A DNA stretch of 64,000 bases, from sequence record PV659873.1, one strand, 5' to 3'. The stretch comes from Escherichia phage WPEC1. The notes beneath the pieces were generated by a model that saw only the letters and a program-made list of their open reading frames with translations, searched no databases and was not told the DNA's origin. Made by a program: the position numbers and the translations under genes. This document shows, one piece after another, positions 61,371-62,541 of this stretch (positions within the stretch are counted from its first letter, which is position 1; each line of letters opens with the position of its first letter).

Positions 61371-61678
61371 TTTACATTTGCAAATCGGTTGAACTAATTG
61401 GTTAATGGAGGTAATATGTTTAGTAAAGAAATGAGAGAGGTGACCACTACTCTGGTAGTTGATCATGGTGTTGAAGTTGAGCGTCACATTTGGAAAGATG
61501 AGCCTCCTTTCTTTGATTTGGCATGGATTTACATTTGCAAATCGGTTGAACTAATTGGTTAATGGAGGTAATATGTTTAGTAAAGAAATGAGAGAGGTGA
61601 TCGCTACTCTGGTAGTTGATCATGGTGTTGAAGTTGAGCGTCACATTTGGAAAGATGAGCCTCCTTTCTTTGATTTGG
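61371..61678. repeat. tandem direct repeat, two copies of about 157 bp, each carrying RBS plus a small plus-strand ORF
   Basis: copies 61371-61527 and 61528-61678 near-identical. Confidence 0.85.
61416..61562 (+). CDS. small ORF (48 aa) with strong RBS inside tandem repeat copy 1
   Basis: taatggaggtaat ATG; MFSKEMREVTTTLVVDHGVEVERHIWKDEPPFFDL... Confidence 0.3.
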   Translation: MFSKEMREVTTTLVVDHGVEVERHIWKDEPPFFDLAWIYICKSVELIG

Positions 61679-62541
61679 TTCATCTCAAATTTATTATCGC
61701 ATAAGCCTTCTTTACAATAATCATCCTCTGCACATATAGGACATTCTACAATCCAGTAAACCTGACGACCTAATCTATCTACTCTATCGCTACGATAATA
61801 TTTACGCTCTACATTATCAGGACAAGCTTTTATAAAATCTTCAACATGTTGCTTATCCTCCATTGTATTCCTTTGTTTCGTCATTTCTCTTTGACAACCG
61901 TAGCATCCAGTTCCTTGTTTAGCACTGTTTACAGTGGTAGTGCACCACTGACCATGAACCTTACACTCACAAATCAACTTAGTGCGGGAACCGTTCCACG
62001 GTTCCACATAGCCTCTAACAATCCAGGGTTTTTCTTTATAGGCTTCTTCTACTTCTTCTTTATGTTTCTCCCACGCAATCGATGTTCTTTCTCTGTTTGC
62101 TTCTCCCATACACTTCCTGCATCCACTCCCGTTTTTCGCAGAAGATATAGAAGTAGACCTCCACTCCCCATGTAAAGCACAACAACAAACCAGTTTAGTA
62201 TTCCATCCTTTCCATTCTCCGTGCCATCCTATAACAGTCCAAGATTTACCTGCCTGATTGTAAGTGGTTTGCACTTCTTCTTTATGTTGCTCCCATGTTT
62301 TTGATTTGTTTATAGATACTGCTTTCTTTATAATCTCCCTACAGCATTTTGGACAACCCCTCCCTCGTTTAGCGGTATTTATGCTTGTTGTTTTCCATTC
62401 TCCGTGCAGAGCACAGATGCATCTAAGTTTAGTTTTATTGCCGTTCCACGGCTCAATATAATCTACAACAGTCCAACACTTACCTTGATAAGCTTGTTTT
62501 ATATCTGTTTTATATTGTTCCCAAGTAACTATTTTTGGCAC
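61447..62541 (-). CDS. Cys/His-rich protein with three internal repeats of about 60 aa; 3' end replaced by repeat sequence (possibly disrupted)
   Basis: three units W-E-x-[YH]-K...C-x-A-L-H-G-E-W...G-x-G-C-x-x-C; native-looking C-terminus VECPICAEDDYCKEGLCDNKFEMKM... survives only in fragments at 60976-61285. Confidence 0.45.
   Translation of the reverse strand: MPKIVTWEQYKTDIKQAYQGKCWTVVDYIEPWNGNKTKLRCICALHGEWKTTSINTAKRGRGCPKCCREIIKKAVSINKSKTWEQHKEEVQTTYNQAGKSWTVIGWHGEWKGWNTKLVCCCALHGEWRSTSISSAKNGSGCRKCMGEANRERTSIAWEKHKEEVEEAYKEKPWIVRGYVEPWNGSRTKLICECKVHGQWCTTTVNSAKQGTGCYGCQREMTKQRNTMEDKQHVEDFIKACPDNVERKYYRSDRVDRLGRQVYWIVECPICAEDDYCKEGLCDNKFEMNQIKERRLIFPNVTLNFNTMINYQSSDHLSHFFTKHITSINQLVQPICKCKSMPNQRKEAHLSKCDAQLQHHDQLPE
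61573..61704 (+). CDS. small ORF (43 aa) with strong RBS inside tandem repeat copy 2
   Basis: same RBS and N-terminal 35 codons as 61416-61562. Confidence 0.3.
   Translation: MFSKEMREVIATLVVDHGVEVERHIWKDEPPFFDLVHLKFIIA

Follow-up and report, generated by a model that had tools for sequence, protein, structure and literature searches.

CapR homology repeats in a truncated ORF of Escherichia phage WPEC1 point to a Phapecoctavirus homing-endonuclease gene cut short by genome assembly

What kind of gene lies at positions 61447–62541 of the 64,000-nucleotide (nt) stretch of Escherichia phage WPEC1 analysed here (sequence record PV659873.1; this whole stretch is termed the window), and why does it break off among fragments of itself? 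On the minus strand these positions form an open reading frame (ORF) of 364 codons with a GTG start codon, which an original prediction, made from the DNA letters, took for a Cys/His-rich, mobile or homing-type gene built from three tandem repeats. We conclude that the repeats, by their sequence, are the CapR homology domain, the DNA-binding zinc-finger module of T5orf172-type homing endonucleases. The ORF very probably represents the first 287 codons of a free-standing Phapecoctavirus gene for a homing endonuclease that combines a CapR array with a GIY-YIG domain, its truncation being an artefact of assembly at a k-mer length (k) of 77. The shortened form in which the window shows this gene does not reflect biology. 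Neither the domain nor the architecture nor the gene is new; all have been described and annotated before, and public records label the gene 'endonuclease' or 'putative homing endonuclease'.

Residues 4–226 of the ORF consist of three tandem units, U1, U2 and U3 (Table 1), which share 44–49% of their amino acids (aa) and 55–59% of their nucleotides, a similarity that far exceeds chance in pairwise BLASTP comparisons (E-values of 8e-28, 5e-31 and 3e-26). The repeat period is ~75 aa with a conserved core of ~60 aa, so that the repeat length of ~60 aa given earlier describes the core; the count of three holds for the ORF, but the intact gene has five such modules. The CxC knuckle of each unit lies within the motif ...TKLxCxCxxHGEW... 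and the CxxC knuckle ~20 residues downstream, which gives each unit two cysteine knuckles, four zinc ligands in all, within the spacing of ~20–28 residues that was looked for (C41xC/C63xxC, C119xC/C141xxC and C191xC/C213xxC). Residues 1–287 contain 21 Cys (7.3%), 7 His and 15 Trp. The third repeat is followed, after a linker, by the sequence block that had been noticed before, CPICAEDDYCKEGLC, which opens with CPIC267, the first knuckle of a fourth unit (C267xxC...CRC).

The ORF matches the Pfam family PF21817, 'CapR homology domain', with 59.5 bits (gathering score 24.2; E = 3.8e-16) in four stretches, the best of which, residues 99–144, lies inside U2. The intact homologue reaches 96–97 bits in five stretches, all 21 aligned relatives match the same family, and so does a loose 72-aa ORF at 60975–61193 (E = 4.7e-10). 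The module had been described as probably zinc-binding and had not been assigned to a named family; the Cys-based zinc-binding type stands, but the family does have a name, PF21817, and is related to DUF723 and DUF4379. The relatives also match DUF723 and DUF4379 ('probable treble-clef zinc finger'), with CapR and DUF723 found together in every one of the 21. PHROGs assigns the protein to phrog_681, 'endonuclease' (E = 8.5e-36 for the window ORF and 7.8e-79 for the intact protein), and a search of NCBIfam gave no match for the ORF or for the fragment.

CapR itself, the repressor of a Vibrio phage satellite (PLE), derives from the DNA-binding region of homing endonucleases of the T5orf172 type in phage ICP1. 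Electrophoretic mobility shift assays and Cys-to-Ser mutants showed that it needs its four conserved cysteines to bind DNA (PMC8096241). In the majority of T5orf172 homing endonucleases, zinc fingers of the CapR, DUF723 or DUF4379 type are present, singly or in several copies, as 'beads on a string', and the number of repeats is altered by recombination between them (PMC10448857). The published order of the motif in PLE CapR is CxxC...CxC (PMC8096241), whereas units 1–3 here have CxC...CxxC.

In the full-length predicted model, with a predicted local distance difference test score (pLDDT) of 84, each CapR unit is arranged as alpha-beta-beta-beta-alpha. The CxC ends the second strand and the CxxC starts the next helix, a secondary structure that suggests a treble-clef-like unit. 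Predicted units of this form have also to be weighed as a zinc-binding structural or RNA-binding protein with no link to mobility, for example an array resembling double-stranded RNA-binding domains (dsRBDs). We regard this as extremely improbable. There is a weak match to Pfam DSRM_2 (E = 0.016), and Foldseek returns, for the full model, low-confidence matches to tandem-dsRBD proteins (E = 1e-3 to 0.1, probability at most 0.54, TM-score at most 0.21), but CapR, DUF723 and DUF4379 fit the units far better. In this 21-member family, moreover, the units are always fused to a GIY-YIG-fold domain, and remote relatives pair them with HNH_3 or, by eye, with a restriction-endonuclease-like C-terminal region. 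The repeat thus matches the CapR domain and not a structural domain without association with mobility.

The gene can be read to its end in related genomes. The window comes from a phAPEC8-like phage (Phapecoctavirus), with positions 52000–60975 100% identical to phage WPEC6. Positions 61679–62667 are 100% identical to WPEC2, WPEC4 and WPEC6 and ~97% identical to ZCKP1, ESCO13, nieznany and Schickermooser, and in all of these they form the 5' part of a 1461-nt gene that RefSeq calls 'endonuclease'. The gene starts with GTG at 62541, preceded by AAGGGGA at a distance of 6 nt; a scan of the upstream DNA for sigma-70 promoters gave none on the coding strand. The ORF product equals the WPEC2 protein through residue 287 ('DNKFEM') and bears no relation to it beyond this point. 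After 'DNKFEM' the intact 486-aa protein continues with '...KMSHLKRGGLPCRC...', completing the fourth CapR module (CxxC...CxC), where Pfam aligns residues 257–302 with positions 25–67 of the CapR profile; a fifth module and a C-terminal domain of ~120 aa follow. The five modules comprise three N-terminal ones of the form CxC...CxxC, one CxxC...CxC and one C...CxxC. A tblastn search of the window with the 486-aa protein finds residues 1–316 only, with residues 317–486 nowhere in the 64 kb, and what the window holds of the gene is codons 1–287 plus two loose 155-nt pieces. Because its loss coincides with a contig edge, we attribute the absence of the nuclease domain from the ORF to assembly; the missing domain probably sits on another contig outside the window.

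The C-terminal domain of the intact homologue has, in its predicted model, the GIY-YIG fold. This relationship is seen by fold comparison only, with the same top matches from the full-length model, and a sequence profile of the domain finds no match among PDB sequences even at an E-limit of 10. Pfam T5orf172 (PF10544) gives sub-threshold matches on the domain in nine of the 21 relatives (best E = 0.0043), residues 236–315 of the relative P0021 scoring 16.1 bits (gathering score 20), and MUG113 does so, likewise below threshold, in four of 21; neither model matches the 486-aa allele. The pattern YIN..D..KxGI..R..QN..N..E..DGxxET is invariant in the 21 aligned relatives, the positions being Y375-I-N, D381, K391xGI, R401, Q405-N, N409, E431 and D455-GxxE459-T. 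The candidate catalytic residues among them, Y375, K391/G393/I394, R401, E431 and E459, are kept in 21 of 21, as judged by alignment alone. In the literature the T5orf172 domain is the nuclease part of homing endonucleases and also of Odn, an anti-satellite nuclease (PMC10448857; PMC8263062); formal membership of the present domain in Pfam T5orf172 is not demonstrated. When the whole 486-aa model was compared with the PDB by Foldseek, the matches had low TM-scores (tandem dsRBD proteins, Mediator, kinases); they are uninformative and were not relied on.

Comparison with known systems places the intact protein close to the ICP1 enzymes. The ICP1 T5orf172-type homing endonucleases (gp174, gp165, gp121, gp53 and gp130) and PLE CapR likewise match PF21817 and have the two-knuckle Cys4 arrangement (PMC8096241; PMC10448857), and the ICP1 enzymes are likewise free-standing lytic-phage genes in which tandem arrays of variable repeat number precede a C-terminal domain of the GIY-YIG superfamily. 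In contrast to ICP1, a Vibrio phage, the gene here belongs to a Phapecoctavirus of E. coli, and its C-terminal domain has diverged so far that it stays below the gathering score of T5orf172; unlike PLE CapR, which has lost its nuclease, the intact Phapecoctavirus protein retains a nuclease domain. I-TevI and other GIY-YIG homing endonucleases are also selfish phage cassettes that combine GIY-YIG-fold catalysis with a modular DNA-binding region containing a Cys4 zinc finger. In I-TevI, however, the nuclease is N-terminal, the reverse of the order here, and there is one small zinc finger with a helix-turn-helix instead of five CapR units. Arrays of DUF723/DUF4379 on HNH or restriction-endonuclease-like domains (P0023–P0026) have a related repeat of ~60–70 aa (...C.EHGEF...GxGCPxC) in long tandem arrays, but share only 22–26% identity, have another nuclease partner and match other Pfam models best.

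The break after residue 287 lies in a part of the record that had been read as a recombination-scarred region. Compared with WPEC6 by BLAST, 60976–63060 is instead a row of nine concatenated pieces whose lengths sum exactly to the BLAST breakpoints (Table 1); the collinear genome resumes at 63061, with 63061–63680 matching WPEC6 940–321. All six 155-nt pieces are polymorphic at base 78, by a mismatch either to WPEC6 or to the partner piece, and 155 = 77 + 1 + 77. The copies at 60976–61130 and 61131–61285 each differ from WPEC6 at their own base 78, those at 62668–62822 and 62823–62977 differ from each other at base 78 of each, and the two 83-mers (61286–61368 and 62978–63060) have a single difference, also at base 78. 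The first piece ends with exactly the 77 nt that begin the 989-bp piece. The last 77 nt of the 989-bp piece (62591–62667) recur, in a whole-window repeat scan, at 19090–19166, so placing the other branch point that bounds the gene fragment at 19090–19244; directly after it, 19245–19321 is the reverse complement, without mismatch, of 62823–62899, the 77 nt that open the piece at 62823.

Pieces of 2k + 1 nt centred on a single-nucleotide polymorphism (SNP), pieces of k + 6 nt and overlaps of k nt are the output of de Bruijn-graph bubbles at k = 77, and the supposed scars are unitigs of such an assembly graph. For 150-nt reads, 77 is the highest k that SPAdes uses by default. Paired 155-mers carry SNPs 2, 5 and 52 nt apart, so that at least three haplotypes (or recombinants) were present in the sequenced lysate, and the record appears to consist of concatenated contigs and leftover unitigs from a mixed lysate of closely related phages. 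Since it was built by concatenation, the 989-bp unitig sits amid 155- and 83-nt debris and the ORF runs into unrelated pieces: those at 61369–61523 and 61524–61678 match WPEC6 (L003) 21758–21915, distant from the endonuclease gene. The fragments of the 3' end that the original prediction had placed nearby are indeed present, as the two copies of codons ~263–316 at 60976–61130 and 61131–61285; they are the Ser and Asn alleles of the bubble beside the 989-bp unitig.

Could the truncation and the duplicated fragments nevertheless be physical, a pseudogene left by repeated illegitimate or homologous recombination, for example at endonuclease double-strand breaks? The fragments do adjoin the gene, homing endonuclease genes decay and are located at recombination boundaries (PMC10448857), and scrambled stretches occur in the WPEC2, WPEC4 and WPEC6 records too. 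We consider this origin very improbable, as recombination would not yield six exact 155-nt pieces polymorphic at position 78, two 83-mers differing at base 78, or exact 77-nt overlaps of non-adjacent pieces; the debris also takes in parts of unrelated genes and turns up again at 19090–19244, at a distance of 43 kb, and the gene is intact in more than 20 independent genomes. Another idea is that the ORF encodes a real CapR-array protein without nuclease, a domesticated DNA-binding regulator like the PLE repressor. A start codon, a ribosome-binding site and three complete CapR modules are retained, and CapR itself is such a domesticated derivative (PMC8096241). The ORF is broken, however, in the middle of the fourth zinc module and exactly at the unitig edge, its final 77 codons are the antisense of pasted unitigs, and none of 26 homologues has this architecture, which makes a regulator of this kind very improbable. 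An endonuclease gene cut at a unitig edge by assembly is the reading that we retain.

Table 1. Positions of the ORF, its CapR units and the assembly pieces around them in the window.
Feature	Positions	Strand	Remarks
CapR-array endonuclease gene, genuine 5' part (codons 1–287)	61681–62541	minus	100% DNA identity to WPEC2/WPEC6; protein equals WPEC2 product to residue 287; Phapecoctavirus gene
CapR unit 1 (U1)	62305–62532	minus	residues 4–79; CIC41, CPKC63
CapR unit 2 (U2)	62080–62304	minus	residues 80–154; CCC119, CRKC141
CapR unit 3 (U3)	61864–62079	minus	residues 155–226; CEC191, CYGC213; found in every family member
Linker (DKQHVEDFIKA...) and first knuckle (CPIC267) of fourth CapR module	61681–61863	minus	broken off by the edge of the 989-bp piece; last residues 'DNKFEM'
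Artefactual ORF tail (codons 288–364 and stop)	61447–61680	minus	antisense of two 155-nt pieces from an unrelated small gene
Upstream intergenic region with terminator-like hairpin (62608–62625) and last 37 nt of ATPase gene	62542–62667	minus	ATPase stop codon 62631–62633; 989-bp piece ends at 62667
Two allelic 155-nt unitigs, rest of fourth CapR module	60976–61130, 61131–61285	minus	codons ~263–316, ...KM[S/N]HLKRGGLPCRC...
Pasted 155-nt unitig	19090–19244		identical to WPEC6; its first 77 nt repeat the end of the 989-bp piece, the rest runs into the ATPase gene
Piece 1	from 60976		155 nt
Piece 2	from 61131		155 nt
Piece 3	from 61286		83 nt
Piece 4	from 61369		155 nt
Piece 5	from 61524		155 nt
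Piece 6	61679–62667		989 nt
Piece 7	from 62668		155 nt
Piece 8	from 62823		155 nt
Piece 9	62978–63060		83 nt

The genomic setting of the intact gene supports a mobile character. A search with the ZCKP1 downstream gene, endonuclease and ATPase as query finds the whole ZCKP1-type locus in 23 records; in most other matching records both flanks are 98–99% identical and the intervening DNA is different. The slot between the flanks holds alleles of 332 aa (tuntematon) and 337 aa (phiWec179), each with one N-terminal CapR unit, of 394 aa with two (phAPEC8 gp013, YP_007348621.1), and of 486 aa with three in the ZCKP1 and WPEC type; ZCKP1 gp194 (YP_009803487.1), annotated 'endonuclease', is the same gene as that of ESCO13 and WPEC. 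Besides carrying 3, 2 or 1 N-terminal CapR units, the alleles are of different subtypes in the C-terminal domain. Among the 21 aligned members the extra first unit, U1, is present in the ZCKP1/WPEC allele only, five members having two units and the rest one. The cassette is bounded exactly by the ATPase stop codon on one side and, on the other, by the ribosome-binding site of the downstream gene.

Presence and absence across related phages, the comparison that had been proposed as a check, thus yields four cassette variants and one deletion, in phage EP57, at a fixed site: the allelic replacement by which a free-standing homing endonuclease is recognised. The slot shows the pattern expected when free-standing homing endonuclease genes displace each other at a single site; that they cleave and home is our inference. 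The earlier description of a mobile or homing-type gene is right as to the kind, a homing endonuclease, but the argument from scars fails, these being assembly debris. Mobility is better supported by family membership, by the GIY-YIG fold predicted for the intact homologue and by the replacement and deletion of alleles at one locus.

In EP57 (L006, OR544956.1), within 301–1806, the cassette is deleted and the ATPase is in frame with the downstream 121-aa protein via '...TLGRGGN-MLVDV...'. Either the site is truly empty or deleted, or the short (130.7 kb) assembly is in error here. The fused ORF prompted the idea that the ATPase and the downstream gene are one gene split by insertion of the endonuclease, which we rejected because the fusion results from a deletion in which the ATPase stop codon was lost and the frames were joined via 'RGGN', and because all other genomes keep separate genes, each with its own stop codon, ribosome-binding site and start. 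A fusion of another kind is seen in P0002 (669 aa, on a 22-kb Logan contig), where one ORF holds two complete CapR and GIY-YIG endonucleases of different subtypes head-to-tail; either homing endonucleases were inserted in tandem or a stop codon was lost.

At the ATPase end of the slot, synonymous differences between alleles cluster in the last ~25 nt of the ATPase gene (L001/L002/L004/L005), and the terminator hairpin that follows it is allele-specific (ATGCCCCGCAAGGGGCAT versus AAACCCGCTTCGGCGGGTTT). The 3' end of the ATPase gene and the hairpin (window 62608–62667) may be a homing or immunity site. It is conceivable, if on the whole doubtful, that the slot between the ATPase and the downstream gene houses an allelic series of competing homing endonucleases, with one, two or three units re-tuning the length or specificity of the target and the ATPase 3' cluster and hairpin forming the cleavage or immunity site.

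Several points weigh against reading the ORF as a CapR-array GIY-YIG homing-endonuclease gene cut by assembly. No Phapecoctavirus allele has a demonstrated nuclease activity, target site or homing event. The nuclease domain lies outside the 64-kb window, and its presence in the source phage is deduced from relatives that are 100% identical. The T5orf172 gathering score is reached by none of the 21 members, and the 486-aa allele has no match even at an E-limit of 10, so that the nuclease domain is assigned from its fold, weak profile matches and conserved residues. The artefact, finally, is read from geometry alone, though this geometry is very specific. If the reading is correct, then by analogy with relatives that have been characterised the five-module zinc-finger array would recognise a long asymmetric site, probably near the junction of the ATPase and downstream genes, in co-infecting phages with another allele or none. 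The GIY-YIG domain would cut near that recognition site, and recombinational repair would copy the cassette, together with the markers on its flanks, into the genome that was cut; specificity would presumably be tuned by how many N-terminal CapR units are present.

Other parts of the WPEC records show comparable irregularities. The variant centre bases of the 155-mers stand at 61053, 61208, 61444/61446, 62745 and 62900. A second contig junction lies at 19090–19321, and no feature read across 19089/19090 or 19244/19245 is genuine. The TelA-like (tellurite/toxic-anion resistance) gene at 59865–60975 has its start codon cut at the contig end, 60975, and because of this loss appears as a 353-aa ORF from an internal ATG (370 aa in WPEC6, L003 894–2006). 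Two near-identical plus-strand ORFs, 61398–61562 and 61555–61704 (MVNGGNMFSKEMREV...), mimic a tandem duplication and are the two bubble alleles of one small gene, which maps to WPEC6 L003 21758–21915. WPEC6 (L003, PV763039.1) has at ~27400–40328, which is 142400–155327 of the record, ~13 kb of tiny ORFs and multi-copy 75–83-nt elements like those of the window. The WPEC2, WPEC4 and WPEC6 sequences are 155–159 kb long against roughly 145–152 kb for most relatives, and the WPEC 'complete genomes' probably include concatenated assembly debris. A literature search for a paper on the WPEC phages or their assembly method found none.

The window and the WPEC2, WPEC4 and WPEC6 records thus contain kilobases of debris that mimics recombination scars, truncated genes and tandem duplications, and other features in 60976–63060 or 19090–19244 should for this reason be discounted. 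For the biology of the phage the consequences are small, the domain being in Pfam, the architecture of a zinc-finger array with T5orf172 having been described in 2021–2023 and the gene standing in RefSeq as an endonuclease. What Phapecoctavirus does offer is a clean set of one-, two- and three-unit alleles that share a locus, in E. coli phages that are easy to handle; this set could serve to test how CapR arrays read DNA. If the allelic series is real, it would provide a tractable E. coli-phage system for the recognition code of CapR zinc fingers.

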